A stretch of 64,000 bases of DNA from Candidatus Omnitrophota bacterium (GCA_016193175.1 JACPSR010000142.1:54332-118331), one strand, 5' to 3'; shown: positions 1 through 52,529, counted from the first letter of the stretch. Program-made: numbers and translations. The notes: generated by a model from the letters alone, not told the origin.

Positions 1-4
1 GCGG

Positions 5-988
5 ATGGCGCCGCAGCGCATCCTCGAGCTGTATGAGCGGATGTGGCGCATCCGGGTGGTGGAGGAGCGCATCAAAGATGAGTACGCCAGCCGTCGCATC
101 CGCGGGCCGGTCCATCTGAGCATCGGTCAGGAAGCGATTGCGGTGGGGGTGCTGTCTCCTTGCCGCCAAGCCGATGTCTGCTTGAGCACGCACCGCAACC
201 ACGCGCACTATCTGGCGAAAGGGGGAGGTCTGACGGGCATGGTGCATGAGCTGTACGGGTTGCCGAGCGGCTCGTGCAAAGGCTATGGCGGATCGATGCA
301 CCTGTTTGATCGGCAGGCCAACGTTCTGCTGTCGAGCGCCGTCGTGGCGGGGTCGGTGCCGATCGCAGCCGGGATCGCCTTTGCGCTGAAGCGGGATGGC
401 ACCGATGGTGTGTGCATCAGCTTCGTGGGGGATGGCGGGACGGATGAAGGGGTGTTCTACGAAACGCTCAATCTCGCGGCACTGCTCAAACTGCCCGTGT
501 TCTTCGTCGTGGAGAATAACGGCGTGTCCACGCTCACGCCCTTGGCGAAGCGGCAGGCGGTGCCTGACGTCGTATCCAAAGCCGAACGGTTCGGGGTGCA
601 GGGCATGAGGGTGGATGGGAACGACGCCGTCGAGGTCGCTGCGGCGTCGCAGCAGATCCTGGAGTGCATCCGGCGCAGCGGGGAGCCGTTGTTGCTGGAA
701 GCGGTCACCTATCGATTGTGCGCGCACGTCGGCCCGGCGGTCTACACCAGCGGCATCGGGGCGGATGAAGAGCTGTTGACGCACCTGGAGCAGGAGCCAT
801 TGAAAGCCTTCAAAGCCAGGATCCGGAGCGACTACCCTGAGCTCATCGAGGCCTGCGCGAAGCGAGAGCAAGCCGTGTCAGAGGAAGTCCATCAGGTGTT
901 CGAAGAGGCCAAGCGCCGGTTTGACGAGGAAGCGGTGCGGGTCGGATTGCCCCCGCCGCCTCCCCCGCCGGATCCTCGCCGGGTGTAA
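5..988 (+). CDS. ThDP-dependent 2-oxoacid dehydrogenase E1 component, alpha subunit (pyruvate/acetoin dehydrogenase E1-alpha family)
   Basis: 327-aa ORF. N-terminus LELYERMWRIRVVEERI and ThDP block GDGGTDEGVFYETLNLAALLKLPVFFVVENNG are typical of E1-alpha. A matching E1-beta gene follows. C-terminal poly-Pro tail. Confidence 0.8.
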   Translation: MAPQRILELYERMWRIRVVEERIKDEYASRRIRGPVHLSIGQEAIAVGVLSPCRQADVCLSTHRNHAHYLAKGGGLTGMVHELYGLPSGSCKGYGGSMHLFDRQANVLLSSAVVAGSVPIAAGIAFALKRDGTDGVCISFVGDGGTDEGVFYETLNLAALLKLPVFFVVENNGVSTLTPLAKRQAVPDVVSKAERFGVQGMRVDGNDAVEVAAASQQILECIRRSGEPLLLEAVTYRLCAHVGPAVYTSGIGADEELLTHLEQEPLKAFKARIRSDYPELIEACAKREQAVSEEVHQVFEEAKRRFDEEAVRVGLPPPPPPPDPRRV

Positions 989-1008
989 CGCATGGGAGGC
1001 GATGCCGT

Positions 1009-1154
1009 GATCCCACGCCCTGCGACGGGCTGCCGCAGGCAGCCCCTGCAACGCGAGCAAGACGGACGGACATGGTGAGGCAAGCGTTCTTCAGTCTAGG
1101 TGGTGTTGCAGCGCCCCGCCCAAGGGCGGGGCAGCCGCAGGGCGTGGGATGATC
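1009..1154 (+). repeat. Palindromic junction element, copy 1 (146 bp)
   Basis: Left arm GATCCCACGCCCTG 1009-1022 and right arm CAGGGCGTGGGATGATC 1138-1154 (13-bp inverted repeat). Hairpins GGGCTGCC-GCA-GGCAGCCC 1027-1045 and CCCCGCCC-AA-GGGCGGGG 1114-1131. Inner stem CTGCAAC/GTTGCAG 1046-1052/1105-1111. The ATG of the next CDS (1149) lies in the right arm. Confidence 0.85.
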
Positions 1155-2162
1155 GCTGCGCAGCAACGCGACACCGTCGTGCTGACCTTTGGCGAGGCCC
1201 TGGCCCGCGCGACGACGCAGGCGATGGAACAGGACGAACGCGTCGTGATGTATGGCGAGGGGATCAACGATCCCGGCGGGTTCTTCGGGTCGACCGTCGG
1301 GGTGAGGGACCGCTTCTCCGAAGCGAGGTGTTTCGACGTGCCGAATTCAGAGGAAGCGTTGATGGGGTTCGGGATCGGAGCCGGCCTCATGGGGTATCGG
1401 CCGATCTTCGTCAACCTTCGCGTCGAGTTTCTGATGTTGGCTATGAATCAGCTCGTCAATCACGCGGCGCGATTACCAACGATGTCCGGCTATCAATGCA
1501 CGATCCCGATGACCGTCAGGGCCATTATCGGCAAGTCGTGGGGACAAGCCGCGCAGCATTCCAGCGCCCTGCACTCGCTGTTTGCGAACATCCCCGGTCT
1601 GCAGGTCGTCGTGCCATCGAATGTCCAGGATGCCCCAGGGTTGCTCCTGGCCTCCATCCAGTCCGATAGACCGACGGTGTTCATTGAGCTCAAATCGCTG
1701 TACGACCTGAAAGCTCCGGTGATGGTGCCGGTGGAGCCGCTTCCATTGGGGCAGGCTCAGGTCGTCCGCCCCGGCGCCGATCTGACCTGTGTGGCCATCT
1801 CCGAGATGGTGGGGTTCGCCGAGCGCGTCGCCCAGCGCCTGGCTCCTCTGGGCATCGAAGCGGAGGTGCTTGATCTGAGGACCCTGGCTCCCTTGGATGC
1901 CGAGGCGATTCTCGCGTCGGTGAAGAGGACGCGACGGGTGGCGGTCTTCGACATCGGGTGGGAGCCGTTCGGCCTGGCAGCCGAAGTCGCCCGGGTGGTC
2001 AGCACCAGCGATCAGTTTCGTCTCGCCGGCCCGCTCCTGAGCGTTGCCCGAGCGCACGAGCACACCCCGGCGAGTTGTTTTTTGGAATACCGCCACTATC
2101 CCGGGGAAGACGAGACGGTGGCGAGGATCCGCGCGCTCTTTTCACGGAGTGATGCCTCATGA
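1149..2162 (+). CDS. ThDP-dependent 2-oxoacid dehydrogenase E1 component, beta subunit (transketolase-like pyrimidine-binding and C-terminal domains)
   Basis: 337-aa ORF. LTFGEALARATTQAMEQDERVVMYGEGI and FDVPNSEEALMGFGIGAGLMGYRPI are typical E1-beta blocks. Pairs with the upstream alpha subunit. Confidence 0.85.
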   Translation: MIAAQQRDTVVLTFGEALARATTQAMEQDERVVMYGEGINDPGGFFGSTVGVRDRFSEARCFDVPNSEEALMGFGIGAGLMGYRPIFVNLRVEFLMLAMNQLVNHAARLPTMSGYQCTIPMTVRAIIGKSWGQAAQHSSALHSLFANIPGLQVVVPSNVQDAPGLLLASIQSDRPTVFIELKSLYDLKAPVMVPVEPLPLGQAQVVRPGADLTCVAISEMVGFAERVAQRLAPLGIEAEVLDLRTLAPLDAEAILASVKRTRRVAVFDIGWEPFGLAAEVARVVSTSDQFRLAGPLLSVARAHEHTPASCFLEYRHYPGEDETVARIRALFSRSDAS

Positions 2163-3139
2163 CGCCGGCCCTGATCTCCATCATCATCCCGGCGCGCAAC
2201 GAAGAAGGCAACATCCCTCGCCTGGAGCAGGAAGTGCTGGCCGTCGTGGAGGCCTTGCCGGATGAGTTTGAGTTCATCGTCGTGGATAACGACAGCACGG
2301 ACCGCACGGGGGAGCTAGTCAAAGCCATCTGCGCCCGCGATCCGCGCTGGAAATATCTGCGGTTGAGCCGCAACTTCACGGTGGAGATGTCGATGACCGC
2401 CGGCTTGCGCGCGGCGCGCGGTGAGGCCATGATCGTCCTGTATTCCGACCTCCAGGACCCTCCGGCGGTGATCCCTCGATTCATTGCGAAGTGGCGCGAG
2501 GGGTATGACGTGGTGTACGGGGTGCGGACGGCCAGGCCGGGAGAACCGGTCTGGAGAAACCTGGCGGTCCATTGGGTGTATCGCGTGATCGCCTGGTCAT
2601 CCGACGTGCCGATCCCGCCGGATGCGGGCGATTTTCGTCTGATCAGCCGGCAGGTCCGCGACGCCCTTGAGCGGTGCGGGGAGTACAACCGCTACCTGCG
2701 GGGGCTGATTGCCTGGCTGGGGTTTCGGCAGGTCGGCATCCCGTATGAGCGGCGGGCGAGAACCGCGGGGAGGAGCCAAGCCCCGTTTTGGCATCTCGTG
2801 TTCTTCGCCTTCAACGCCATCACGAGCTTTTCCCTCAAGCCGCTGCGGCTCTTTACGTTTCTCGGGTTGGCCCTGTTATTGCTGTCCGCCTTGGCGCTGC
2901 CGGTCTACGTCATCCTGGCCATTGTGGGATCGCCCCCGCCCGGGATCACGACCATCATCACCCTCCTCTTTGTGGCGATCGGGTTGAACAGCCTGGGGAT
3001 CGGCATCTTGGGAGAGTACCTCGGCCGGACCTACGCTGAGGTGAAGCGCCGGCCGCTCTATGTCATTCAAGAAACCGTCAACCTTCCAGCGGATGCGACA
3101 GGTCCTGTAGCGCTTCACCCGGTGTTGGAAGAGCGATGA
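2159..3139 (+). CDS. Family 2 glycosyltransferase, polyprenyl-phosphate sugar synthase type (DPM1/GtrB/CsbB/ArnC-like)
   Basis: SIIIPARNEEGNI, VVDNDSTDRT and DLQDPP motifs, plus two C-terminal TM helices. ATGA overlap with both neighbours. Confidence 0.8.
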   Translation: MTPALISIIIPARNEEGNIPRLEQEVLAVVEALPDEFEFIVVDNDSTDRTGELVKAICARDPRWKYLRLSRNFTVEMSMTAGLRAARGEAMIVLYSDLQDPPAVIPRFIAKWREGYDVVYGVRTARPGEPVWRNLAVHWVYRVIAWSSDVPIPPDAGDFRLISRQVRDALERCGEYNRYLRGLIAWLGFRQVGIPYERRARTAGRSQAPFWHLVFFAFNAITSFSLKPLRLFTFLGLALLLLSALALPVYVILAIVGSPPPGITTIITLLFVAIGLNSLGIGILGEYLGRTYAEVKRRPLYVIQETVNLPADATGPVALHPVLEER

Positions 3140-5520
3140 CCGCGAAGAAGCCGGTGAAAACGTTGAACATCGAGTTTCTCGTGCCGCTGATGGTCTTGCT
3201 GGTCTTCAATGTCTCCTACTGTCTTAGCACCTTCATTCCGATTCACGACACCATGTTCAACGCCCAGGCCTTCCACGTGTTCTATCGCGAGTGGTTCTTT
3301 CATGGCGACCTGGCGCACTGGATTCCGTACGGGACATACGGCTGGACAAGCACGATGGAGCAACTGGCGTTCCTCTCGCCCATGAGCTACGTGGTGGCGT
3401 TGGCGGGCCGGCTGTTGCGCGTGACAGATGCTCTCCTCCTGTTCAAGGGTTCCGTGATCCTTGAGCAGCTCGTCCTGCTCCTCGGGATGTATCTGTTGTC
3501 TCGTCAGCTCTTCTCGAGGAGGAGCACGGTCCTCCTGGTCTGTCTCGGGGCGGTTGGCAGCACGGTCTGGTACGCTCAATACCATTTCAATTTTCGGATC
3601 TTCTATATGTTCCCGTTAGTTGTCCACCTCCTCATCCGCTTCTTTGAGACCCACCAGTCCGCGTGGTTGTGGGTCGCGGGCATCACGACAGTGGCCTGGG
3701 CGCTCGGCAACGTGCCGTACTTTGTGGCGCCATGGCTGTTGACGCTGTCGATCATCGTGCTGGTCCTCTTCTCGGCTGACCGCAAGAGCTGGCGCGCTCT
3801 GCGTGCGCGGTCGCGGGGCAACGTCCTCACGTTGACGCTCTTCACGGTCGCGGTGGCGGTCTATCTGTATCAGGTCGCCAAGGCAGCCGACTTCACGTTT
3901 CTGTCAGCCGGGAGGGATGCGACGACCGGAGCCGTGGGCATCCAGCCCTTCCTGTACCATGGTGGCCGCGCGGATCCTGGCGCGGTCCTGAAAAGCTTGG
4001 TGTTCGGATGGCCTTCGCATTTGCCGTGGGGCTCCACGCGAGATAACAGCATCTACGTCGGGCTGCTGTGCGTGGCCTGTTTTCTCTGGGCCGTCCTGCG
4101 AGTTCGTACGACGCGGTTTCTGGCATTGGCGGGCGCGCTCGCTGCCCTGGTCTGGCTCTCGTTTGGCGGGTTCTTCGCCACGGTCGCCTATTACGTGGTT
4201 CCGACGATGGATCGTTACCGACACGTTGGGCTGGTGTATGGGCTGGCAAAAATATTGTTCCTCCTGTGCGCGGGCTTCGGATGGGAGCACTTTTGGTCCG
4301 CTCGCAGTCGGGTCCGCACCGTCCTGGCGATGCTCATCGTCATGGGTGTGCTGGTGGACGCGTTGCGCGTCGTCTTTCCGTTTGATTTCTATCCATTGAC
4401 GCAACATGGGTGGGCGCGTCTTCGCGAGTTGCTGCAAGCCGGGGGACAGCTCGCGAACGAGGAGGTGTGGCCAACGATCTTTCTCTGGCGGGTGGGTCTC
4501 TACGTTCTCCTGATCGGACTGGGGAGCCTCATCATGCGTGTGGTGATCACGCTGCTGGGGAGGGCCCGTACGCGCCTGGTCGTCCCAACCCATGTGCATG
4601 GGGTCGCCCTGCGGACCGCGTTGGTCCTCGGCTTGGTGTTGGATCTGGTCTCCTACCAGGCGGTGGTCTATGCCGAGGCGCCCAAACTGTCTCCATCCTA
4701 CGTGGCGTATCTTGATGCGATGACGGTGGCCAACTGGCAATTCCAGGATCAGCGAACGACCAAGCCCGCTGGGGTCCGGGAGCAACAGGCGATGGATCTG
4801 ATTACCCGCCCGGGCGCCATGGCCTCCTATGCCTTGGCATACAGTTTCGCGCAGTTCGATCCGTGCGCAACGGCGTTCAGGGGGGACTGGTGGTCGGCAG
4901 GGGTTGTCACGCTGCTGCGAGCCACCAGCGAGGGCGAGTGGTGGGATGCCAAGGGCGAGGTGGTAGCACGCCTCGTGGGTTGCAACTCGCCAAAACTGCG
5001 CCTGGTGCCCCATGCGGTGTCCGCCGAGACCATTGAAGAAGCCATCGCGCTGATCCGCAGGACAACGGATCTCGAGCACGTAGTAGTGCTGCGAGGGGTG
5101 ACGCTGCCAGCCCAACCAGATCATGTTCGTGATGTTGGCACGGAGGCGGCTGGAACCGTGCGGGTGACGCGCTTTACGGCCAATGACTTGATTGTGGAAG
5201 CCGATGTGGCCTCGAACGTCGGCGCATGGCTCGTGTATGCGGATGCGTTTCATCCGGGTTGGATGGTTACTGTGAACGGACGACGCGTGCCCATCGCAGA
5301 GGCGTACCTCGCATTCAAAGCCGTCTGGTTGAATGATGGCCACTCGATCGTGCACTTCACGTTTCGTCACGGGGTGAGCTGGTTCCTCAGTTACATGATC
5401 GCGTTCTTTGGAACGTGCGCAGGCCTCGTCTTGCTGGCTGCCTGTTGGTGGGCCGCATGGTCCTCGCCACGACTGGTTCAGAACAGGATGACGCATGCGA
5501 GTGCTGGTCACAGGGCATAA
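3136..5520 (+). CDS. YfhO-like polytopic membrane protein (GT-C type glycosyltransferase candidate)
   Basis: 794 aa with many hydrophobic helices. The C-terminal soluble domain ends in YADAFHPGWMVTVNGRRVPIAEAYLAFKAVWLNDGHSIVHFTF, the pattern I associate with the YfhO family. Follows a polyprenyl-P-sugar GT2. Confidence 0.65.
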   Translation: MTAKKPVKTLNIEFLVPLMVLLVFNVSYCLSTFIPIHDTMFNAQAFHVFYREWFFHGDLAHWIPYGTYGWTSTMEQLAFLSPMSYVVALAGRLLRVTDALLLFKGSVILEQLVLLLGMYLLSRQLFSRRSTVLLVCLGAVGSTVWYAQYHFNFRIFYMFPLVVHLLIRFFETHQSAWLWVAGITTVAWALGNVPYFVAPWLLTLSIIVLVLFSADRKSWRALRARSRGNVLTLTLFTVAVAVYLYQVAKAADFTFLSAGRDATTGAVGIQPFLYHGGRADPGAVLKSLVFGWPSHLPWGSTRDNSIYVGLLCVACFLWAVLRVRTTRFLALAGALAALVWLSFGGFFATVAYYVVPTMDRYRHVGLVYGLAKILFLLCAGFGWEHFWSARSRVRTVLAMLIVMGVLVDALRVVFPFDFYPLTQHGWARLRELLQAGGQLANEEVWPTIFLWRVGLYVLLIGLGSLIMRVVITLLGRARTRLVVPTHVHGVALRTALVLGLVLDLVSYQAVVYAEAPKLSPSYVAYLDAMTVANWQFQDQRTTKPAGVREQQAMDLITRPGAMASYALAYSFAQFDPCATAFRGDWWSAGVVTLLRATSEGEWWDAKGEVVARLVGCNSPKLRLVPHAVSAETIEEAIALIRRTTDLEHVVVLRGVTLPAQPDHVRDVGTEAAGTVRVTRFTANDLIVEADVASNVGAWLVYADAFHPGWMVTVNGRRVPIAEAYLAFKAVWLNDGHSIVHFTFRHGVSWFLSYMIAFFGTCAGLVLLAACWWAAWSSPRLVQNRMTHASAGHRA

Positions 5521-6559
5521 CGGATATCTCGGGTCGGTCATGACCCCGCTACTGGTCGAATCCGGTCATGACGTTGTGGGTTTGGACACTGACTACTATG
5601 CGGGGTGCACCCTCGTGCCTGAGGCGGTACGGGTGCCGTCGCTCCGCAAAGACCTACGCGACCTTGAACCCCGTGACCTGGAAGGCTTCGATGCGGTGGT
5701 TCATTTGGCGGCACTGAGCAACGACCCGATCGGCAATCTGAATTCCCGCTGGACCGAGGAGATCAACTTCCAGGCCTCGGTGCGGCTGGCGGAGTACGCC
5801 AAGGCGGCGGGCGTGCGGCGGTTCCTGTTTTCTTCTTCCTGCATCATGTACGGAATGTCAGAGGCGGCGGTGGTCACGGAGGAGTCGCCGTTGGATCCCC
5901 AAACGGACTACGCCCGATCGAAGGTCAAGAGCGAACGGGCCATCGCGGCCCTGGCCGGCGACGGCTTCGCCCCGACGTTCCTGCGTAACGGCACGATCTA
6001 TGGCCTGTCCCCTCACATGCGGTTTGACACCGTCTTGAACAATCTCATGGGCTCGGCGGTTGCGACAGGGAAGGTCGTGCTGTACAGCGACGGCCAGCCG
6101 TGGCGGCCGGTCATCCATATTGAAGATGTGGCCCGCGCGTTCCTCCGGGTTCTGCAAGCCCCCATCGCGGTCGTACGGAGCCAGGCCTTCAATATAGGGG
6201 ATGCTGGTATGAATATCCAAATCGGCGAGCTGGCGCGGATCGTGGCGACGATTGTCCCTCGCTGCACCATCGAGCAGCTATCGCGTCCGGACGCCGACCA
6301 GCGGACCTACAAAACCGACTTCAGTAAGTTCGCCAAGACCTTTCCGGACTTTCGGTTTCATTGGACGGTAGAAGAAGGAGCGCGGGATCTGCACCGCGCG
6401 TTGACGGCGATTGGGTTGCGCCATGAGGCGTTTCTCGACCGTCGGTTTACCAGGCTGAAGTGGCTGCGCCATCTGCTCGACAGCGGCCGGCTTGACGCCA
6501 ATCTGCGGTGGCAGGAAAAGACAGCGGAGAGCGTAGAGCGGAGAGCGTGCAGCAGATGA
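5495..6559 (+). CDS. NAD-dependent sugar epimerase/dehydratase (extended SDR)
   Basis: MRVLVTGHNGYLGS Rossmann motif and catalytic YARSK. Confidence 0.8.
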   Translation: MRVLVTGHNGYLGSVMTPLLVESGHDVVGLDTDYYAGCTLVPEAVRVPSLRKDLRDLEPRDLEGFDAVVHLAALSNDPIGNLNSRWTEEINFQASVRLAEYAKAAGVRRFLFSSSCIMYGMSEAAVVTEESPLDPQTDYARSKVKSERAIAALAGDGFAPTFLRNGTIYGLSPHMRFDTVLNNLMGSAVATGKVVLYSDGQPWRPVIHIEDVARAFLRVLQAPIAVVRSQAFNIGDAGMNIQIGELARIVATIVPRCTIEQLSRPDADQRTYKTDFSKFAKTFPDFRFHWTVEEGARDLHRALTAIGLRHEAFLDRRFTRLKWLRHLLDSGRLDANLRWQEKTAESVERRACSR

Positions 6560-7065
6560 CGACGAAACACTTTAAGGATCTGCTCAACGCTGAACGCTCA
6601 ACGCTGAACGCTCGAATGATCGACGGCGTCAAGATCATCCCGCTCAAGCAGATCGTCGATGAGCGGGGAAAAGTCATGCACATGCTCAAAGCCACCGACC
6701 CGCACTTTCTCCGGTTTGGGGAGATTTATTTTTCCTGCGCCTGGCCTGGAGCCATCAAAGCCTGGCATGTGCACAAATCAATGACGTTGCATAACGCGGT
6801 GATCTCCGGGCGGGCCAAGCTCGTCCTGTACGACGGTCGCGACAGTTCACCGACGAAGGGTCAGCTCCAAGAGCTCTTCCTAGGTGAAGACAACTACTGC
6901 CTCGTGCAGATCCCACCGGGCATCACCAACGGCTACAAGGCCTATGGCGACAAGCTGGTGATCCTGGCCAACTGCGCGACGGAGCCGTATGACCCGGAGG
7001 AGATCATCCGCCTGGATCCGTTCACGCCGGACATCCCGTACCGGTGGGAGGTGAAGCATGGTTGA
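6556..7065 (+). CDS. RmlC-like cupin sugar-nucleotide 3,5-epimerase family protein
   Basis: IIPLKQIVDERGKV and FGEIYFSCAWPGAIKAWHVHK resemble the dTDP-4-dehydrorhamnose 3,5-epimerase fold. The 6556 start is an ATGA overlap. An alternative start at 6616 (MIDGVKIIPL) would leave a 56-bp spacer containing the 14-bp tandem repeat. Confidence 0.7.
   Translation: MTTKHFKDLLNAERSTLNARMIDGVKIIPLKQIVDERGKVMHMLKATDPHFLRFGEIYFSCAWPGAIKAWHVHKSMTLHNAVISGRAKLVLYDGRDSSPTKGQLQELFLGEDNYCLVQIPPGITNGYKAYGDKLVILANCATEPYDPEEIIRLDPFTPDIPYRWEVKHG
6583..6610 (+). repeat. 14-bp perfect tandem duplication (CTCAACGCTGAACG x2)
   Basis: Read directly: 6583-6596 is identical to 6597-6610, followed by a partial CTC. Confidence 0.9.
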
Positions 7066-8122
7066 CGCTCGCGTCCTGCACGCTGAGGGGGCGACGATCT
7101 CCGTGCCGCGGCGGCCGGCCGGCTCTGAGCCGGGGCTGGTCGTGACACGGACCCCGCTGCGGGTGAGCTTCGCGGGGGGTGGAACGGATCTGCCGGCCTT
7201 CTATGAACGCGAGCCGGGGGCCGTGCTGAGCACGACCATTGATCAGTACCTCTATGTGACGGTCAAGCGGCACGGCACACTCTTTCATGAGGGTTTCCGC
7301 CTGAACTACTCCGAAAGCGAACAGGTCGATCGGCTCGAGGACATGAAGAACAACATCGCCCGCGAATGTCTCCGGTTCCTCCAGGTCGAGTCGCCCGTCT
7401 ACATCAGTACGATCGCCGATCTGCCGGAGTTCTCCGGCCTTGGATCCTCCAGCAGTTTTGCCGTGGGACTCCTGAACGCCCTGCATGTCTTCAGGGGCGA
7501 GCGCGTCTCAGCCGGGCAGTTAGCGGAGGAGGCCGCGCATGTGGAGATCGATGTCTTGCGGCGACCCATCGGCAAGCAGGATCACTATGCGGCGGCATTT
7601 GGCGGGCTGAATTTCTTCTGCTTCATGCCGGATGGACGGGTGAGCGTCGAGCATCAACCGCTTCCACGTAGCGTCGTGCAACGGTTCTTCGAGCACCTGC
7701 TGTTGTTCTGGACGAGGATCCGTCGCGATGCCGGCACCGTCTTGATGGAACAGCAGCGCCGCATCGATGAGACGTTTGGGACGTTGCAGGCGATGCGGGA
7801 GGATGCCCGGACCCTCCACGCGCTCATGCGCAACGGCTTTGATCCGCTCGCGTTTGGAGCGGTCTTGGACCGCACCTGGTCGCTGAAGCGGCAATTGGCG
7901 AGCGGCATCACCAATGACTGCATTGATGCGTGGTACCAGCGGGCGCGGGAGGCGGGAGCTGTGGGGGGCAAGATCTGCGGAGCAGGCGGTGGCGGGTTTT
8001 TGCTCCTCGTGTTGCCGCCGGATCGCCGAGACACTGTCCGCCGAGCGCTTCCAGACCTGGACGAAGTGACGATCGGCTACGAGGCGCAGGGCTCGCGCGT
8101 CTTGCTGCCGTTTGTGGAGTGA
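7058..8122 (+). CDS. hddA: GHMP-family sugar kinase, D-glycero-D-manno-heptose 7-phosphate kinase-like
   Basis: RTPLRVSFAGGGTDLPAFY N-terminus and GHMP ATP motif PEFSGLGSSSSFAV. gmhA and gmhB are in the same cluster. Confidence 0.7.
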   Translation: MVDARVLHAEGATISVPRRPAGSEPGLVVTRTPLRVSFAGGGTDLPAFYEREPGAVLSTTIDQYLYVTVKRHGTLFHEGFRLNYSESEQVDRLEDMKNNIARECLRFLQVESPVYISTIADLPEFSGLGSSSSFAVGLLNALHVFRGERVSAGQLAEEAAHVEIDVLRRPIGKQDHYAAAFGGLNFFCFMPDGRVSVEHQPLPRSVVQRFFEHLLLFWTRIRRDAGTVLMEQQRRIDETFGTLQAMREDARTLHALMRNGFDPLAFGAVLDRTWSLKRQLASGITNDCIDAWYQRAREAGAVGGKICGAGGGGFLLLVLPPDRRDTVRRALPDLDEVTIGYEAQGSRVLLPFVE

Positions 8123-9093
8123 TGCAGGCGATGGGCGCCATCGGATCGCGCCACGTGCTGGTGACCGGGGGGACGGGCCTGGTCGGCTCCCACCTGGCCC
8201 GGCGGCTGACCGAAGCCGGGCACCGCGTGACCTTGCTGGTCCGCCCAACGTCAGACCGCAGCCGCCTGGCGGGATTCGAGTCTCGCCTGGAATGGGTCAG
8301 CGGGGATCTTCGGGATGCGGCCTCGGTGCAAGCTGCGGTTCGGCAGGCGGATCCGGAGCTGGTCTACCATTTGGCAAGCACGGCGCTGAACCAGGGCCAC
8401 GCTGGTCCGCGGGATCACGTTGAAACGATTGTCCTGGGCACGCAACATCTCTTGGAAGCGCTGAAGGACCGCCCGGGTCTGCGGATCGTGGCGGCCGGTT
8501 CCGCCGCGGAATACGGCAGTGGCACCGGCGTGCGCGAGGACCAACTGCTTCGTCCCAGCACCGTGCTGGGGGCGGCCAAAGCTGCGGCCTTCCATTTGCT
8601 GCAGGCCTATGCGCAGACCACCGGATTGCAGCCGGTGACGCTGCGGCTGTTCACGCCCTACGGGCCAGGCGAGCATCCGCGGCGCCTGATCCCATACGTC
8701 ATTGTGAGCGCGCTGGCCAAACAGGAGGTTGCGCTGACCTCGGGCGAGCAGGAGCGGGATTTTGTGTACATCGAAGATGTGGTGGACGCGTTGCTGGCGG
8801 CGACCTCGCCGTCGGTAGCCGGCGGCTCGGTCTTCAATATCGGATCGGGGCAGGGCACGCGCGTGCGCGACGTGGTCGAGCGCGTGCTCGGTTTGATGGG
8901 CAATCCGGTGCAGGCTCGCTTCGGCGCCGTTCCCACGCGGGCGGATGAGATCGTGCGCATGTCGGCCGACATCACCGCGGCGCAAGCGCAACTGGGCTGG
9001 TCGCCGCGCGTGCCGCTGGAGGAGGGGCTGCGGCGTTCGATCGCCTGGTTCGTTCAGCGCCGCCAGCCGACCGAGGCGGTGGCCGGGCGCTAA
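8122..9093 (+). CDS. NAD-dependent sugar epimerase/dehydratase/reductase (extended SDR)
   Basis: HVLVTGGTGLVGSHL Rossmann motif. TGATG junction with hddA. The in-frame ORF begins at 7930, but the N-terminal region overlaps hddA. Confidence 0.8.
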   Translation: MQAMGAIGSRHVLVTGGTGLVGSHLARRLTEAGHRVTLLVRPTSDRSRLAGFESRLEWVSGDLRDAASVQAAVRQADPELVYHLASTALNQGHAGPRDHVETIVLGTQHLLEALKDRPGLRIVAAGSAAEYGSGTGVREDQLLRPSTVLGAAKAAAFHLLQAYAQTTGLQPVTLRLFTPYGPGEHPRRLIPYVIVSALAKQEVALTSGEQERDFVYIEDVVDALLAATSPSVAGGSVFNIGSGQGTRVRDVVERVLGLMGNPVQARFGAVPTRADEIVRMSADITAAQAQLGWSPRVPLEEGLRRSIAWFVQRRQPTEAVAGR

Positions 9094-9094
9094 G

Positions 9095-10141
9095 ATGCCG
9101 GAGCAGAATCGCAAGTCGGCTTACGTGTACGACCAAGATGTCTTCCGGCCGGGAGCGCTCTTTTGCCGCCCTCATACAATCGCCTGGTTCGGTCGGATTC
9201 ACAGTGGCGGGGCGCTGGAGTTCTGTCACCAGGTGCGCTGGAACAACTGGGGATTCCGCGACGACGCACCGTATGGCCCACGGCGAACAGCGCGCGAACT
9301 CCGGATTGCTGTGCTCGGGGATTCTTTCGTGAGCAACCTCGACAGCGAGGCGGCGTGGCCAAATCTGGCGGATGGTTTGCTGAAAGCTCGCCTCGGGCCG
9401 GAAATCCGCGTGTTCAACTTAGGATTGCCCGGAGTCGGACCGGCGAACTGGATGGCGATGGAACACCTGGTGCGGGCGCTCGCGCCGGACCTGATTGTAG
9501 CGGCGTGTTATGACGGCATTCTGAAGCGACCGGCGATCCAGTTCGTTACAGACGTGCCTCGCCGGCGCTTTGTGTGCCGCTACGGCTATCCGCTGCACAG
9601 CGCGCGGCCGATCGGACTCTACGATCCGGCGTTCCGGACGCGGTGCGCTGAGGAGCGGGCGGCGGCGGTGCAGGCGCTGAATCATGCGCAGCGCGCTGCC
9701 GGGCCGACTACCTGGTCCCATGTGCGCACCTGGCTGGATCGGCGCTGGATGAATGGGCAGACCATCGGTGAGCTGAATGCGTCGCGCTTGCGGCGGATCC
9801 TTCGGTGGGCGCCCGCAGCCATGGTGGTGGGGTGTCCGTCCCAGGCCCGGTTCACGGGCGAGATCCTGGATGACGACTCCTCCCAAGCATTGGAGCGTGT
9901 GGCGGTGGCCGAACGGGTGCCATTGGTGGACCTGTACGCTGAGTTGCAGGGACGGAGTCCGGAGCAGCTCTATACCGCCAGCAGCGGTCATTGGAGCCGT
10001 TCCGGCAACCAGGCGGTGGCAGAGCGCCTCGCGGACCACTGGGAAGCATGGGCCCGGGCGCGCTGGACCGGTGCGGCGATGCGTGAAGCTACGCCATCCA
10101 TTCACGTGGATGGAGCTCCCGTCCGGGCAGCGGGACAATGA
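9095..10141 (+). CDS. SGNH/GDSL-type hydrolase or acyl-esterase family protein
   Basis: Block I IAVLGDSFV. Size and context fit a glycan O-acyl esterase/transferase. Start is the first ATG after the upstream stop. Confidence 0.55.
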   Translation: MPEQNRKSAYVYDQDVFRPGALFCRPHTIAWFGRIHSGGALEFCHQVRWNNWGFRDDAPYGPRRTARELRIAVLGDSFVSNLDSEAAWPNLADGLLKARLGPEIRVFNLGLPGVGPANWMAMEHLVRALAPDLIVAACYDGILKRPAIQFVTDVPRRRFVCRYGYPLHSARPIGLYDPAFRTRCAEERAAAVQALNHAQRAAGPTTWSHVRTWLDRRWMNGQTIGELNASRLRRILRWAPAAMVVGCPSQARFTGEILDDDSSQALERVAVAERVPLVDLYAELQGRSPEQLYTASSGHWSRSGNQAVAERLADHWEAWARARWTGAAMREATPSIHVDGAPVRAAGQ

Positions 10142-11394
10142 GCGCTGAGATGGAGGAGGTGGTGGTGGAGCCGCCTGTCGCGTGTGTCGTATGCGGCGGA
10201 ACGGCGGTGGAGTTGGTGCTCGACCTCGGGTGCACCGCACTGGCGAACAAGTTCCTTGCAACCTCTGAACTGGGGCGGCCGGAGCCGGTGTACCCGCTGC
10301 GCCTTGGGTATTGCCGCGAGTGCACGCATGTGCAGCTCCTCGACCGCGTGCCGCCCTCGGCCATGTTCACCGATTACCTCTATATGTCCTCCGCCTCTGA
10401 CACGCTGAAGGCGCACCTGTGGTCGCTGAGCGACGTCGTCCAGCGGCGCGCCCGCCTGACGGCGAGCGATTTGGTGATCGACATCGGTTGCAACGACGGC
10501 ACGCTGCTGGACGGGTTTGCGCGCTACGGCGTGCGGCTGCTGGGCGTCGATCCGGCGAAAAACCTGGCCGAGATAACCCGGTCCAAGCGCGTCGAGCGCT
10601 ACATCGGTTTTTTCAACGCGGAGACGGCCTGCGAGATTGTGCAGCGGTGGGGTCGGGCCTCGGCGGTGACCGCGACGAACACCTTCCCGCACATCCCTAA
10701 GCTGGAGGATTTTCTGACTGGCATCGAGCACGTGCTGGCGCCGGGCGGAGTGTTCGTGATCGAGGCACACTACCTGATGGATCTCCTGGACCGCTGCGCG
10801 TTCGATACGGTCTATCACGAGCATGTCTCGTACTGGGCGCTGGCACCCATGCAGCGGCTGTTTGCGCGCCATGGGATGCAGGTGGTGGACGTGGAGCGGT
10901 TGCCGATTCATCACGGGCAGCTGCGGGTGTTCGTGCAGCGGCGGGGTGAGGGAACGGTGCAGCCACGTGTGGCCGAGTTGCTGGACCTGGAGCGAGTCCG
11001 AGGGCTGAACCGGTTTGAAACGTACCAGCGCTTTGCTGGACAGGCCCAACGGATCAAGCGCGAGTTGCGCCAGACGCTGAGTCGATTGGCGGCGCAGGGC
11101 AAGCGCCTCGCCGGCTACGGGGCGCCCGCAAAAGCCAGCACGCTGCTGGGGTTTGTCGGGATCGGTCCGGAGAGGCTTGCGTACATCGCGGATAACAACC
11201 CTCTGAAACAAGGACGCTACATACCAGGCGTCCGCATCCCCGTCGTTCCGCCGGCACGGATTCTGGAGGACCCGCCGGATTATCTGTTGCTGTTGGCATG
11301 GAACTTTACAGACGAGATCATGCGGCAACAGGCGGAGTACCGAACGCGGGGCGGGAAGTTTATCATCCCCGTTCCTGAAGTGCAGTACCTGTAG
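10138..11394 (+). CDS. SAM-dependent sugar C-methyltransferase (TylCIII-like: Zn-ribbon, class I MT and C-terminal C-MT domains)
   Basis: Cys pairs CVVCGG ... CRECTHVQ, SAM motif VIDIGCNDG, and a long C-terminal domain as in NDP-hexose C-methyltransferases. Confidence 0.7.
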   Translation: MSAEMEEVVVEPPVACVVCGGTAVELVLDLGCTALANKFLATSELGRPEPVYPLRLGYCRECTHVQLLDRVPPSAMFTDYLYMSSASDTLKAHLWSLSDVVQRRARLTASDLVIDIGCNDGTLLDGFARYGVRLLGVDPAKNLAEITRSKRVERYIGFFNAETACEIVQRWGRASAVTATNTFPHIPKLEDFLTGIEHVLAPGGVFVIEAHYLMDLLDRCAFDTVYHEHVSYWALAPMQRLFARHGMQVVDVERLPIHHGQLRVFVQRRGEGTVQPRVAELLDLERVRGLNRFETYQRFAGQAQRIKRELRQTLSRLAAQGKRLAGYGAPAKASTLLGFVGIGPERLAYIADNNPLKQGRYIPGVRIPVVPPARILEDPPDYLLLLAWNFTDEIMRQQAEYRTRGGKFIIPVPEVQYL

Positions 11395-11418
11395 AGGGAG
11401 TGCGACATCGAGATCGAG

Positions 11419-12918
11419 ATGGAACGTGCAGACCACCGAGGTGAAGGTACCCTCTCGCCCCGCGAGGTTGAGATGGTCAATGCCTACGGTCCCTATCATC
11501 ATGCCGTCTGGTCTGCTGGGGGTGTGGCGATCAGCCATGAAGAACGGCTCAGCGGCCGCGGGGAGTTCTTGGTCGATCGGATTCGCGAATCCCTCCTGAA
11601 GCGTTTCACACTCGATGAGATCAAGACGTTTTCCATTCTGGACGTGGGATGCTATGACGGGTGGATCCTGCAGCAACTCAGCGAGTTACCGTTTGCCCGG
11701 TTGGTCGGCATCGAGCCGCGAGAGAAAAATCTCATGAAAGGGCAGAAGGTGAGGGAACTCCTGCGCATTCCCTCGCGCGTTGAGTTCAAAGTCGGCGACC
11801 TTGATTCGCTGGGCGAGGAGACGTTCGACGTGGTCATCTGCGCTGGGTTGCTTCATCATGTCGAATCTACGCCGGCGGCGCTGCGCCGCCTGAGGGCTGT
11901 CTGCCGGCGGTTCCTGTTTATCGAGACGATCTGTCTCTCATCCCGGCATATCACGAAGGCGCTCCAGCGCGAGATTGAGATGAAGGATGTCGTGTACTTT
12001 TATAAGCGCAAAATCTGCGGGGTGACAGGCCAGAAATGGGAGTCATCCTATTCCGATGGGTCAACTACCAGGCTCTGTGTCGTGAACATCCCGTCCTTGG
12101 AATCGCTGACGATGTATCTGGATCTCTGTGGATTTGAAGGGGTGGACATCGTGACGAATCCCGCGGAGTACCGTGCAGCCGTCTGGAGGGATCAACGGGC
12201 CTGCAACGCCGTCTGTCTTTCCGCGGTCATCCGGGCCGAACAGCCGGAAGCCGTTTCTGAGGAAGAGTCCTGGGTGCAGGGGTATGAGAGGGGGCTGGCC
12301 AGAACGATCCTGAAGAAAGCGTACGTGCAACCGCTCTATGAGATCTGGTGTCTGCGAAAGAAACGGGTCCGTCTTCCCGTGTCCTGTTGGACCACCTGGC
12401 TGTATCTCCGTTCGCCAAACCGGTGGGCGGGCCTGTGTCATTCCCTCACGGCCATCTGGTTCAAGGATCGGTATGCGCTGGAGATCGTCAAAAATCTGAG
12501 GTTTAACCCGGAAGACAAGCTCCGTCTGGAATATGGCAAAGTCCTCTGCGACGAGGGCGATACCGAGGGGGCCATCGCGGTTCTGAAGGCCGTGGTGCAG
12601 ACGCTCAACGCGGATTGGTGGTCGGTGTATCGGTCCTTTGCGCTGCTCTCGGACGCCTACGTGCGGATCGGATCGCACGAAGAAGCACAGCGGTATGCCT
12701 CGTTGTGCGCCACCTGCAACCCGAAGTTTCCGCACATCGCTCAGGCGGCACGGGGATTTCCCGAGAGCGACCGACAGGACCACGATGATGGTGCGATGTC
12801 GATGATCCCACGCCCTGCTTCGGTCCCGCCAACGGCGGGACCGTGTTTGCCCACAGCGCATCAACCCATCTTGCAAACACACGCTGCCTGCGGCAGCGGG
12901 AAGCGGGGCGTGGGATGA
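11419..12918 (+). CDS. Class I SAM-dependent methyltransferase with C-terminal helical-repeat (TPR-like) region
   Basis: ILDVGCYDGWILQQL and FDVVICAGLLHHV motifs. The last ~38 codons (12805-12918) are encoded by junction element copy 2, so the true C-terminus is uncertain. An alternative start is at 11473. Confidence 0.6.
   Translation: MERADHRGEGTLSPREVEMVNAYGPYHHAVWSAGGVAISHEERLSGRGEFLVDRIRESLLKRFTLDEIKTFSILDVGCYDGWILQQLSELPFARLVGIEPREKNLMKGQKVRELLRIPSRVEFKVGDLDSLGEETFDVVICAGLLHHVESTPAALRRLRAVCRRFLFIETICLSSRHITKALQREIEMKDVVYFYKRKICGVTGQKWESSYSDGSTTRLCVVNIPSLESLTMYLDLCGFEGVDIVTNPAEYRAAVWRDQRACNAVCLSAVIRAEQPEAVSEEESWVQGYERGLARTILKKAYVQPLYEIWCLRKKRVRLPVSCWTTWLYLRSPNRWAGLCHSLTAIWFKDRYALEIVKNLRFNPEDKLRLEYGKVLCDEGDTEGAIAVLKAVVQTLNADWWSVYRSFALLSDAYVRIGSHEEAQRYASLCATCNPKFPHIAQAARGFPESDRQDHDDGAMSMIPRPASVPPTAGPCLPTAHQPILQTHAACGSGKRGVG
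12802..12918 (+). repeat. Palindromic junction element, copy 2 (117 bp, right arm slightly degenerate)
   Basis: Left arm ATGATCCCACGCCCTG 12802-12817 and right arm GGGGCGTGGGATGA 12905-12918. Hairpins GGTCCCGCC-AAC-GGCGGGACC 12822-12842 and CGCTGCC-TGC-GGCAGCG 12882-12898. Inner stem GTGTTTGC/GCAAACAC 12843-12850/12873-12880. Confidence 0.85.
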
Positions 12919-12934
12919 GCTGCGAAGGGATCAT

Positions 12935-13837
12935 GTGACGATGCGGGTGGTGGTGACCGGATCAGAGAGCTTCATCGGTAGGGAATTGCGACGGCATGGC
13001 CAAGCGAAACAGATCGAATGGGTCGGCCTGGATACGGCCCCCGCTGACGATCCGGGGCACATCCAGATCGACATTCGCTCTCCGGAGCTTGCGGATGTCA
13101 TCCCAGAGGGGCTGGACGCGGTGGTGCACCTCGCGGCCATTTCGCGTGATCAAGATTGTCGTGCCAACCCGCAGCAGGCATTTGATGTCAACGTGTCAGG
13201 GACCCTGAACGTCATACGGGCCGCACGGGAGCGAAACGCCCGCCAATTCATCTTCGCCTCGAGTGAATGGGTGTATGGGGACGTGAGCTCCGATGCCGTC
13301 CAGACGGAAGATCAGCCCATTGCGGTGACGGGGATCCGGTCCGAGTATGCACTGTCCAAACTAGTCGGGGAGCAAGTGCTCCGCATGGCCTTCGCCCAGG
13401 GTCTCTGTCCGGTCACCGTGCTGCGGTTCGGGATTGTGTACGGCCCAAGGCCTTCCAACTGGTCGGCCGTGGAGACGCTCTTTCACGCGGTACGGACACA
13501 ACAGACCGTGACGGTGGGAAGCCTGGAGACGGCAAGACGATTCATCCATGTCTCCGACATCGCTGAGGGGATTGTGAGCGCGATCGGACAGGACGGATTC
13601 CAGATCTTCAATCTCAGCGGGGATCGGCTCATCACCCTGCGTGAAGTAATCGAGCAGAGTGCGTTGTTGCTTGATCGACGCCCCACCGTGGTAGAGCGGG
13701 CGCCGGAAGGCGTGAGCATCCGCAATCCTGATAACCGAAAGGCGAAGCACCTGCTTGGCTGGGAACCCGCCACGGATCTCCCACATGGATTGCGATCCCT
13801 GGACGAGACGCTGCAGACGACCGGTGCGCATGAGTGA
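12935..13837 (+). CDS. NAD-dependent sugar epimerase/dehydratase (SDR)
   Basis: RVVVTGSESFIGREL Rossmann motif and catalytic YALSK. GTG start at 12935 or ATG at 12941. Confidence 0.8.
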   Translation: MTMRVVVTGSESFIGRELRRHGQAKQIEWVGLDTAPADDPGHIQIDIRSPELADVIPEGLDAVVHLAAISRDQDCRANPQQAFDVNVSGTLNVIRAARERNARQFIFASSEWVYGDVSSDAVQTEDQPIAVTGIRSEYALSKLVGEQVLRMAFAQGLCPVTVLRFGIVYGPRPSNWSAVETLFHAVRTQQTVTVGSLETARRFIHVSDIAEGIVSAIGQDGFQIFNLSGDRLITLREVIEQSALLLDRRPTVVERAPEGVSIRNPDNRKAKHLLGWEPATDLPHGLRSLDETLQTTGAHE

Positions 13838-13843
13838 CCACGC

Positions 13844-14005
13844 GATCCCACGCCCTGGCACCGGTAGCGCCTCAATGACCACGAGTGAATACGCGGACAC
13901 CGCAGGCTGGTTCGGCACTGCCGAGGCCGGCCAGCAGATGAGACCAACCGGAGGAGCCGGCCAGGGCCACGCGATGCGTGGCCCGTGCCAGGGCGTGGGA
14001 TGATC
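13844..14005 (+). repeat. Palindromic junction element, copy 3 (162 bp, longest)
   Basis: Arms extend to 15 bp: CCCACGCCCTGGCAC 13847-13861 and GTGCCAGGGCGTGGG 13985-13999. Hairpin GGGCCACGC-GAT-GCGTGGCCC 13964-13984. The downstream ATG at 14000 lies in the right arm. Confidence 0.85.
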
Positions 14006-14845
14006 ACGACGCCTAAGGCCACGCGGCCGCCTCACAAGGGCTCCGTGCGGGGCCATCCCATCGAGGTTCGCAAATCCGTGTTGTCCATCCTCTACAAGAG
14101 CAAGGCCTCGCACCTGGGACCCTCCATGTCGGCGGTCGAGATGTTGCTTGCGATCTACAATTCCGTGGACCTTGATGCCATCCGTGCCAAAGATGTGCTC
14201 CGGCCTCGGGTGATCATCAGTAAAGGCCATTGCGCGGCGGCGACCTACAGCGTGATGGCCCACGTCGGGCTCATGGATTTTCGGACCCTCGAGACCTACC
14301 ATCAAGACGATTCCGCGCTGGCCGGGCATGTCAGCCATGCCGTGGAGTTCGTCGAACACTCGACGGGAGCGCTCGGCCATGGGCTGCCGGTCGCGTGTGG
14401 ATGCGCCATGGGGCTTCGGGCTCGTGGTGCCCCACAGACCCCCGTCTTTGCGCTCCTGGGTGATGGAGAACTCCAAGAGGGGGCGGTGTGGGAAGCCATC
14501 ATGTTCGCCAAGCACCACCAGCTGGCCAACCTCATCCTCCTGATCGATGACAACCGGATCAGTAGCATCACCAACACCGCAGAGGTCATCAACCTGCTGC
14601 CCCTGAAGGACCGCTTCGCCGGGTTCGGGCTTCGGGTCTATGAAGTCGATGGCCATGATGTCGAAGCGATCATTGAGGCGATTGATGACATCAAGAGGAT
14701 TCGGGAAGTCAGCGTGATTATTTGCCGGACGACGAAGGGCTACGGGGTCCCCTTCGCTGAAGGCGAGCCGATCTGGCATTACCGGACCCTGAACGAGCAG
14801 GACTACCGCGCTGCGATGGCGTATCTCGAACAGGGGCAGATCTGA
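14000..14845 (+). CDS. Transketolase, N-terminal (ThDP-binding) subunit
   Basis: SKASHLGPSMSAVEMLLAIY, GALGHGLPVACG and ThDP motif LLGDGELQEGAVWEA. Start is the ATG within the repeat arm. Confidence 0.85.
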   Translation: MITTPKATRPPHKGSVRGHPIEVRKSVLSILYKSKASHLGPSMSAVEMLLAIYNSVDLDAIRAKDVLRPRVIISKGHCAAATYSVMAHVGLMDFRTLETYHQDDSALAGHVSHAVEFVEHSTGALGHGLPVACGCAMGLRARGAPQTPVFALLGDGELQEGAVWEAIMFAKHHQLANLILLIDDNRISSITNTAEVINLLPLKDRFAGFGLRVYEVDGHDVEAIIEAIDDIKRIREVSVIICRTTKGYGVPFAEGEPIWHYRTLNEQDYRAAMAYLEQGQI

Positions 14846-32025: not shown

Positions 32026-32027
32026 TC
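32011..32027 (+). repeat. Solo right arm of the junction element
   Basis: CAGGGCGTGGGATGATC is identical to the right arms of copies 1, 3 and 4. It carries the stop of 30502-32025 and the ATG (32022) of the hisF paralog. No convincing left arm is present. Confidence 0.7.
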
Positions 32028-52480: not shown

Positions 52481-52529
52481 CGGCGAACACTATGGCACAG
52501 GGACAGTCCTGAAGAGAAAGGTGGAAGCC

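Follow-up and report, generated by a model that had tools for sequence, protein, structure and literature searches.

The E1 pair and its adjoining genes

The genes analysed here encode a thiamine diphosphate (ThDP)-dependent enzyme of the pyruvate/acetoin dehydrogenase E1 type, made of an alpha and a beta subunit, and lie at the beginning of a 64,000-nucleotide stretch of DNA from Candidatus Omnitrophota bacterium (GCA_016193175.1, JACPSR010000142.1:54332-118331), the whole of which is referred to below as the window. The ThDP-binding E1 alpha gene occupies window positions 1-988 on the + strand, with the C-terminal 327 of its 342 residues inside the window, and in a Pfam scan its open reading frame (ORF) at 5-988 matched E1_dh (PF00676) with E=9.7e-57, far beyond chance. 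An exact look-up of the E1 beta protein returned eight contigs, and the beginning of the truncated E1 alpha gene was read from contig L001 (JACPTW010000094.1, assembly GCA_016192565.1), which matches window positions 1-12127 at 99.93% identity and supplies another 8.8 kb on the upstream side. The full gene spans L001 8812-9840 and begins 41 nt ahead of the first window position, the codon for Met16 being the ATG seen at position 5; the 342-residue form is backed by homologues of 342-343 residues. The E1 beta gene (window 1149-2162, + strand) encodes 337 residues comprising a pyrimidine-binding and a C-terminal domain (PF02779 and PF02780; Transket_pyr, E=2.8e-25, and Transketolase_C, E=1.1e-22). 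These domain matches bear out the identification of an E1 alpha/beta pair in a previous reading of the window made from the sequence without database searches (the sequence-only reading).

At 342 and 337 residues, the two subunits fall within the range of about 330-345 residues of the pairs known to branch sugars. Among solved structures, E1 beta comes closest to the E1 beta chains of pyruvate dehydrogenase (PDH), with about 165 bits (165 for human PDH E1), and E1 alpha matched human PDH E1 with 134 bits. Both subunits scored under the cut-offs of the corresponding NCBIfam models, E1 alpha reaching 264.9 bits against TIGR03182 (PDH E1 alpha; cut-off 393.85) and E1 beta 245.3 bits against NF006667 (cut-off 321).

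The ThDP motif GDG...NN is kept in E1 alpha (Gly157-Asp158-Gly159 and Asn187). His52 and His256 of the same subunit, equivalent to human His63 and His263 (the latter being His271 in Geobacillus stearothermophilus), are both conserved, and human Ser264 is replaced by Val. In E1 beta, Glu68 (the ThDP-activating Glu59 of G. stearothermophilus) and His137 (His128) are likewise conserved. The catalytic His and the activating Glu are common to carboligases and dehydrogenases and are therefore useless for telling the two families apart; the catalytic His, tried as a discriminator, was dropped, as it is conserved in both. Other residues are kept across the group of relatives that have no E2 (lipoyl-acyltransferase) gene beside them and are different in E1s accompanied by E2/E3 or a lipoyl protein (partnered E1s), namely Pro50, Tyr84, Gly89, Arg198 and Pro259 of the alpha subunit and Asp41, Arg91, Trp131, Gln133 and Tyr317 of the beta subunit. 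Of these, alpha Pro50, Arg198 and Pro259 and beta Arg91, Trp131 and Gln133 lie close to the active site; Pro259 adjoins an active-site His, and Gln133 shortly precedes that of the beta subunit. E1 alpha ends in a proline-rich tail, GLPPPPPPPDPRRV (window 946-988), with the pattern GL.PPPPDP.RV, which is present in all ten loci of the subclade described below (10/10) and which neither the remaining E2-less pairs nor the partnered E1s possess.

Directly upstream of the pair, as read from L001, lies a gene for a short-chain dehydrogenase/reductase (SDR) of 319 residues, the stop of which overlaps the E1 alpha start. The full upstream order is an HddA-like GHMP kinase, an ATP-binding cassette (ABC) exporter, a GmhA-like isomerase, a nucleoside triphosphate (NTP)-transferase/GmhB fusion, rfbF, rfbH, an rfbG-like gene and the SDR gene, and from rfbF to the E1 pair the stops and starts mostly overlap. 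Since it is preceded by sugar genes on the same strand over at least 8.8 kb, the pair is situated inside the cluster and not, as had been supposed, at its head. RfbF was identified as a glucose-1-phosphate cytidylyltransferase with 339.9 bits (NCBIfam cut-off 300.25) and RfbH with 657.7 bits (cut-off 423), and a CDP-glucose 4,6-dehydratase was the top match of the RfbG-like protein at 213.6 bits, yet under the cut-off. RfbH matched the CDP-6-deoxy-4-hexulose 3-dehydrase of Yersinia pseudotuberculosis (3BCX) with 513 bits and retains His220 together with Cys193, Cys251, Cys253 and Cys261, the marks of an Fe-S, pyridoxamine phosphate (PMP)-dependent dehydrase. With rfbF, the rfbG-like gene and rfbH present, a route to CDP-4-keto-3,6-dideoxyhexose is encoded, and, as these genes adjoin an E2-less E1 pair, a keto-sugar acceptor would be encoded alongside the enzyme, as it is in the AviB1/AviB2, TxnB3/TxnB4 and Pau11/Pau12 clusters (PMC4753412, PMC5659172, PMC12247030). 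The same CDP-sugar is the acceptor to which YerE adds a pyruvate-derived two-carbon (C2) unit in the synthesis of yersiniose (PMC9306805).

On the downstream side, the stop of E1 beta overlaps the start of a gene for a family 2 glycosyltransferase (GT2) of the GtrB/ArnC/PgfS type (window 2159-3139, + strand; Glycos_transf_2), in agreement with the claim that the next gene is a GT2 and not a lipoyl-acyltransferase. Over residues 6-306 this protein matched Synechocystis GtrB (5EKP) with 235 bits and ArnC with 142-151 bits; its top NCBIfam matches were PgfS and ArnC, under the equivalog cut-offs, and two hydrophobic stretches were recognised by eye at its C-terminus. Enzymes of the GtrB/ArnC/PgfS type load sugars onto undecaprenyl phosphate. 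Orthologues with 74-78% identity come after E1 beta in the related loci L009, L010 and L016. The GT2 stop in turn overlaps the start of a gene for a hydrophobic membrane protein of 794 residues (window 3136-5520, + strand), the sole match of which was a weak C-terminal one to YfhO (18.2 bits; cut-off 28.5). It had no match in PDB or NCBIfam and no similarity to the protein mannosyltransferase (PMT)-like proteins of L009 or L096/pDMC1, and it is kept only in L015; it may be a lipid-carrier-dependent glycosyltransferase C (GT-C)-like transferase, a candidate role to which these comparisons lent no support. The locus thus resembles known GtrB/ArnC/PgfS systems in having a close homologue of equal length followed by the gene for a large membrane protein, whereas the sugar donated here would be a branched octose linked to CDP. 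A GtrA-like flippase was not seen.

Partner genes, conserved linkage and tree position

Genes for E2, E3 (dihydrolipoyl dehydrogenase) and lipoyl proteins were sought in two ways. In the Pfam scan, which covered the tested + strand ORFs of the window and of the 8.8 kb upstream of it (about 73 kb in total), no 2-oxoacid_dh, lipoyl or pyridine-nucleotide-disulfide oxidoreductase domain was found. In a tblastn search of all fetched DNA, E2, E3, lipoyl-protein and LipA sequences from the plasmid E1 operons of Klebsiella, Sinorhizobium, Agrobacterium, Thermus and Streptomyces were used as seeds, and loci with adjacent E2/E3 or lipoyl partners (L098, L099, L101, L104 and L105) served as positive controls. 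Apart from one match in L100, only the control loci were hit; the window, L001 and the 87 related loci gave no match. The absence of visible E2 and E3 genes noted in the sequence-only reading therefore holds for the window and for the 8.8 kb upstream, where rfbF, rfbH, the rfbG-like gene and the SDR gene were found instead. The finding of E2 and E3 genes directly before the pair, by which that reading proposed to be refuted, thus did not come about.

A protein search returned thousands of homologues, the best 120 of which are 48-99% identical. Six genomic contexts were sampled over a range of 49-66% alpha identity (L009-L014), and all of them contained sugar genes (6/6) and no E2 or E3 gene (6/6). 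At 66% alpha identity, L009 has the order RfbF, RfbH, a ferredoxin-NADP reductase (FNR)-like reductase, RfbG, E1 alpha, E1 beta, GT2, SDR and a GT-C-like protein, and at 65% L010 has E1 alpha, E1 beta, GT2 and SDR, without RfbH. L011 (56%) has the order RfbF, RfbG, RfbH, SDR, E1 alpha and E1 beta, and the same gene set recurs in rearranged form in L013 (54%) and L014 (49%); L012 (55%) has RfbF, RfbG, SDR, a C-methyltransferase, E1 alpha and E1 beta. In L015, a 94% identical relative from Omnitrophota, the order of the eight genes from rfbF to the gene for the 794-residue protein is identical to that described above. L016, 65% identical, comes from an Anaerolineaceae genome, and in L017 only rfbH and an SDR gene stand beside the pair. 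Among relatives at 48-66% alpha identity, rfbF, rfbG and rfbH are thus found by the pair in L009, L011, L013 and L014, and partly in L017; counted over the whole subclade of ten loci, rfbH occurs in 7/10.

A wider scan of GTDB, with one genome per species, gave 80 loci which, apart from L015 and L016, are 35-49% identical and come from Gemmataceae, Rhodospirillales, Azospirillum, Nitrospina, Legionella, Myxococcota, Bacillota and others. The 81 ORFs situated just downstream of the pairs included 28 DegT aminotransferases, 13 NAD-epimerases/dehydratases, 12 radical SAM proteins (10 with a B12-binding domain) and four GT2s, and no E2 or E3 family was among their 25 commonest families. By tblastn, a DegT aminotransferase gene was located within 2.5 kb of the pair in 49 of the 87 E2-less loci, and cultured bacteria have this combination too, on plasmid pDMC1 of Solidesulfovibrio magneticus RS-1 and on plasmids of Azospirillum. 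The presence of DegT beside E2-less pairs from many phyla (L018-L094, L096 and L097) hints at aminoethyl-type branches such as that of kibdelomycin.

Alpha and beta proteins were extracted by means of tblastn from 94 loci, and unrooted neighbour-joining trees with 200 bootstraps were calculated from 94 alpha and 97 beta sequences, the beta set additionally containing human PDHB, Geobacillus PdhB and the Pyrobaculum E1 beta taken from PDB alignments. The window's pair, represented by L001, groups with L009-L017 in a ten-locus subclade with 100% bootstrap support in the alpha and beta trees alike. The partnered E1s of Klebsiella, Sinorhizobium, Agrobacterium, Thermus and Streptomyces form a group in both trees, joined in the beta tree by the human, Geobacillus and Pyrobaculum chains, and the split between the partnered E1s and the 87 E2-less loci has bootstrap values of 94% (alpha) and 97.5% (beta). 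Two E2-less plasmid pairs, L100 and L102, fall on the partnered side of this split; L102 has no clear genomic context. Percent identity alone fails to separate the groups, the window's pair having 39-42% identity to canonical E1s.

Proposed function and its alternatives

E1 alpha/beta pairs are known that take a C2 unit from pyruvate and attach it as a branch to 4-keto or 3-keto deoxysugars, at C-4 or C-3 (PMC12247030, PMC5659172, PMC4802897). The evidence for branching consists of knock-outs and feeding for avilamycin, aldgamycin, trioxacarcin and paulomycin and, for KbDH only, of work in vitro (PMC12247030, PMC5659172, PMC4802897). Such enzymes, termed alpha-KADH2, are always pyruvate-dependent and always transfer C2; about 120 clusters have been predicted, and there is no solved structure (PMC12247030). 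With these pairs (AviB1/AviB2 of avilamycin, TxnB3/TxnB4 of trioxacarcin, KstD7/KstD8 of kosinostatin, Pau11/Pau12, equivalent to Plm8/Plm9, of paulomycin, the aldgamycin pair and KbDH-alpha/beta of kibdelomycin) the window's pair shares two separate subunits with E1 alpha and E1 beta domains, of about 330-345 residues (327 and 345 for TxnB3/TxnB4; PMC5659172) and the ThDP motif (PMC5659172, PMC4753412, PMC12247030), as well as a location amid genes for nucleoside diphosphate (NDP)-keto-deoxysugars in a cluster without E2 or E3. Branch-modifying enzymes of known systems are ketoreductases such as Pau7 or YerF, or aminotransferases, and the SDR beside the window's pair is a candidate for such a role. 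The pair differs from the known ones in that its host is a Candidatus Omnitrophota metagenome-assembled genome (MAG) and not an actinomycete, that the cluster is one of more than 70 kb for a surface glycan and not for an antibiotic, that the sugar would be CDP-activated and 3,6-dideoxy, as indicated by rfbF/G/H, where theirs are dTDP-activated, that a GtrB-type polyprenyl-phosphate glycosyltransferase takes the place of one acting on an aglycone, and that the alpha subunit carries the subclade-specific proline-rich tail.

The second system of comparison is that of YerE/YerF (CDP-yersiniose A, Y. pseudotuberculosis O:VI), ErwE and MygE, with which the locus shares the predicted acceptor pathway of cytidylyltransferase, 4,6-dehydratase and E1-type 3-dehydrase. 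YerE performs its C2 addition on CDP-4-keto-3,6-dideoxyglucose, and the predicted reaction at the locus, addition of a pyruvate-derived C2 unit to C-4 followed by reduction, is the same (PMC9306805). YerE, however, is a single-chain, acetolactate-synthase-like ThDP flavoprotein, whereas the window's enzyme is of the two-subunit E1 type; it would be a functional analogue of YerE and a non-orthologous replacement for it. TPP_enzyme_N/M/C domains, which a YerE-type single chain would have, were not found among the Pfam-scanned ORFs of the window. The locus unites an acceptor pathway of the YerE type with an E1-type enzyme in the surface-glycan cluster of an uncultivated non-actinomycete.

We consider it probable (about 0.6) that the pair is an E2-independent, heterotetramer-type ThDP carboligase of the AviB1/AviB2 (alpha-KADH2) type, an assignment made from domains, subunit size and gene context, with the known members set beside the pair by description. 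Gene identities, cofactor and catalytic motifs, the lack of E2/E3 genes, the linkage and the tree separation are direct observations; the pathway that follows, with its donor and acceptor, its branch position, its reduction step and its route by way of a carrier lipid, we infer from gene content and gene order. Pyruvate would be decarboxylated by the pair to give hydroxyethylidene-ThDP, the carbanion of which, instead of transferring an acetyl group to a lipoyl arm, would attack the C-4 keto group of CDP-4-keto-3,6-dideoxyhexose and yield CDP-4-C-acetyl-3,6-dideoxyhexose. The upstream SDR would then probably reduce the branch to a 1-hydroxyethyl group, giving a yersiniose-like octose, and the GtrB-like GT2 would probably load this octose onto undecaprenyl phosphate for incorporation into a surface glycan outside the membrane. 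A sugar-branching role, as put forward in the sequence-only reading, is supported at the level of sequence by the adjoining acceptor genes, the conserved linkage and the separation in the trees.

Several observations weigh against this proposal, some concerning the acceptor and its processing and others the class of the enzyme. RfbH requires an E3 (AscD-type) reductase, which is absent here, as a search with the L009 protein matched only L009; the FNR-like reductase of that locus (L009 2685-3416, 243 residues, between rfbH and rfbG) is, among all related loci, the sole candidate for an AscD/E3 partner, and it is too short to contain the N-terminal ferredoxin domain of AscD. Among solved structures, the upstream SDR comes closest to GDP-4-keto-6-deoxymannose reductase (Rmd), a 4-ketoreductase, and such an enzyme would be a competitor for the keto group that is to be branched and would not reduce the branch. 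One SDR besides RfbG is found next to the module in 10/10 subclade loci, these SDRs being of three unrelated, non-orthologous types. Furthermore, rfbH is missing from 3/10 subclade loci (L010, L016 and L012, the last of which has a C-methyltransferase gene in its place), so that a 3,6-dideoxy sugar cannot be the acceptor throughout the subclade. The missing reductase and the loci without rfbH would also suit the same chemistry on other substrates: a 4-keto-6-deoxyhexose without 3-deoxygenation, a 3-keto sugar (as for aldgarose and kibdelomycin) or a heptose-derived ketone as the acceptor, or a longer 2-oxo acid, for instance a 4-hydroxy-2-oxo acid, as the donor. The heptose genes just upstream (GmhA-like, HddA-like and NTP-transferase/GmhB) and an HpcH/HpaI-type pyruvate aldolase gene at window 55854-56780 (140 bits to HpaI, under the cut-off) point in this direction, as HpaI-like aldolases make the 4-hydroxy-2-oxo acids that are the long branch donors of ErwE (PMC9306805). 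However, rfbF, rfbH, the rfbG-like gene and the SDR gene are the immediate neighbours of the pair and their linkage to it recurs, unlike that of the heptose genes or the aldolase, the aldolase gene is 54 kb away, and known alpha-KADH2 enzymes use pyruvate only (PMC12247030). A change of substrate of this kind is regarded as possible but rather unlikely.

The remaining adverse points concern the enzyme itself. Within the E2-less group the position of the subclade has less than 40% bootstrap support, and on Streptomyces linear plasmids E2-less pairs stand among secondary-metabolite genes unconnected with sugars, beside nonribosomal peptide synthetase (NRPS) condensation, acyl carrier protein (ACP) and ketosynthase (KS) genes in L095 (pair at 10980-13026) and beside cytochrome P450, AMP-ligase and acyl-CoA dehydrogenase genes in L103 (pair at 8955-10927). 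These two plasmid pairs had been considered as a source of sugar-branching actinomycete sequences and were ruled out by their non-sugar contexts. Such E2-less pairs may act as plain 2-oxo-acid decarboxylases, and the window's pair might do likewise, being independent of E2 without branching a sugar and giving an aldehyde or acyl unit or acting on a sugar-derived 2-oxo acid; the beta tree places L095 and L103 near the subclade, weakly, and 2-oxo-acid sugars are predicted products of the window too, as indicated by NeuB. We regard this as very unlikely, since the conserved partners in the subclade are keto-deoxysugar genes and a polyprenyl-phosphate glycosyltransferase, genes for a carrier protein, a ligase or an acyltransferase are all absent next to the pair, and the placement near L095 and L103 has less than 30% bootstrap support. 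Lastly, both His residues used for reductive lipoamide acylation in canonical E1s are retained, so that the sequence alone would be compatible with an E2 encoded elsewhere. Fold, ThDP/Mg motif, activating Glu and both His are indeed those of canonical heterotetrameric E1s of the pyruvate, acetoin and branched-chain 2-oxo acid complexes (human PDHA1/PDHB, the E1p of G. stearothermophilus and AcoA/AcoB), the identity of the pair to canonical E1s (39-42%) is much like that to many E2-less relatives, and only about 73 kb of the genome was covered, all of which would agree with a conventional E1 of a pyruvate or acetoin dehydrogenase that stands in a glycan cluster by chance, with its E2 and E3 elsewhere in the genome. 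This is considered extremely improbable. Genes for E2, E3 or lipoyl proteins are adjacent in the controls and lacking in the window and in 87 related loci, and on either side the pair is joined to sugar genes by stop/start overlaps. Its synteny with rfbH, rfbF and GT2 persists in relatives of as little as 48% identity, both subunits are under the PDH equivalog cut-offs, the changed residues include alpha Arg198 and Pro259 and beta Arg91, Trp131 and Gln133, and the trees place the pair in a group apart from the partnered E1s with the bootstrap values given above.

If E2-independent sugar branching is indeed the function of the pair, a yersiniose-like C-branched octose would be expected on the surface of an Omnitrophota bacterium, from a phylum with almost no known glycan chemistry. 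In the literature, YerE-like enzymes are associated with lipopolysaccharide (LPS) and E1 pairs with antibiotics of Gram-positive bacteria (PMC4753412, PMC12247030), a division that would be blurred; the literature was searched for O-antigen clusters with E1 pairs and for branched sugars of Coxiella, and nothing relevant came up. Genes of this kind are now annotated as pyruvate or acetoin dehydrogenase, which would distort metabolic reconstructions of MAGs, and the large and easily spotted group of E2-less E1s in the glycan clusters of many phyla is a source of candidate biocatalysts forming tertiary alcohols. The proposal will not surprise a specialist; its interest lies in a clean, testable prediction and in drawing attention to a broad family, wrongly annotated, in glycan clusters from the environment. 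A more far-reaching possibility, which we think quite unlikely, is that E1 carboligases are a widespread second route beside YerE to C-branched surface-glycan sugars in many uncultivated and some cultured Gram-negative lineages. The Omnitrophota subclade would then be a distinct variant with its own tail, remodelled active-site loops, a CDP-3,6-dideoxy-4-ketohexose substrate and an output into a decoration system based on undecaprenyl phosphate, perhaps with the HpaI aldolase or the split transketolase described below serving non-C2 branches.

The alpha-beta spacer and the rest of the cluster

The E1 alpha and E1 beta genes are separated by a spacer of 160 nt (window 989-1148, + strand) with strong predicted structure, its minimum free energy (MFE) being -100.1 kcal/mol (z=-6.6 compared with shuffled sequences). 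A GC hairpin at about 1113-1134, CCCCGCCC-AAGG-GGCGGGG, is a 25-nt insertion compared with the 94% identical relative L015 and is followed by no T-run. The corresponding spacers in relatives measure 0-117 nt. An Rfam scan of the whole window gave no match, and the spacer is therefore not a known RNA.

The Pfam-positive ORFs tested across the 64 kb are all on the + strand and all sugar-related. A gene at 10138-11394 encodes a TylC3-like NDP-hexose C-methyltransferase (Methyltransf_13/14), the presence of which predicts, from sequence, a C-methyl-branched sugar in the same glycan; in L012, a gene related to it stands directly before the E1 pair. The transketolase, beside which the E1 pair would be a second ThDP system according to the sequence-only reading, is present as a split pair (13985-15762), with the N-terminal ThDP domain encoded at 13985-14845 and the pyrimidine/C-terminal domain at 14845-15762, and its ThDP role is putative. 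It may supply sedoheptulose-7-phosphate for the heptose genes or, alternatively, may be a second ThDP branching system by analogy with the split transketolases of miharamycin, for which such a role has been proposed (PMC12247030). A transaldolase gene is located at 52194-53288, and SIS isomerases are present in the cluster.

A nonulosonic-acid module at 24420-34799 comprises a CMP-transferase, an SDR, NeuB, a UDP-GlcNAc 2-epimerase/PglD-like acetyltransferase fusion, a B12-radical SAM protein and HisF/HisH-like proteins, NeuB being accompanied by two proteins of the CMP-transferase family. B12-binding radical SAM enzymes are encoded at 28958-30505 and 44725-46284, and this family recurs beside the E1 pairs of other loci. 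The window also contains further SDRs, an RmlC-like epimerase, a carbamoyltransferase and several glycosyltransferases. The HpaI-type aldolase gene is followed by genes for two SDRs, a cytidylyltransferase and a D-2-hydroxyacid dehydrogenase.

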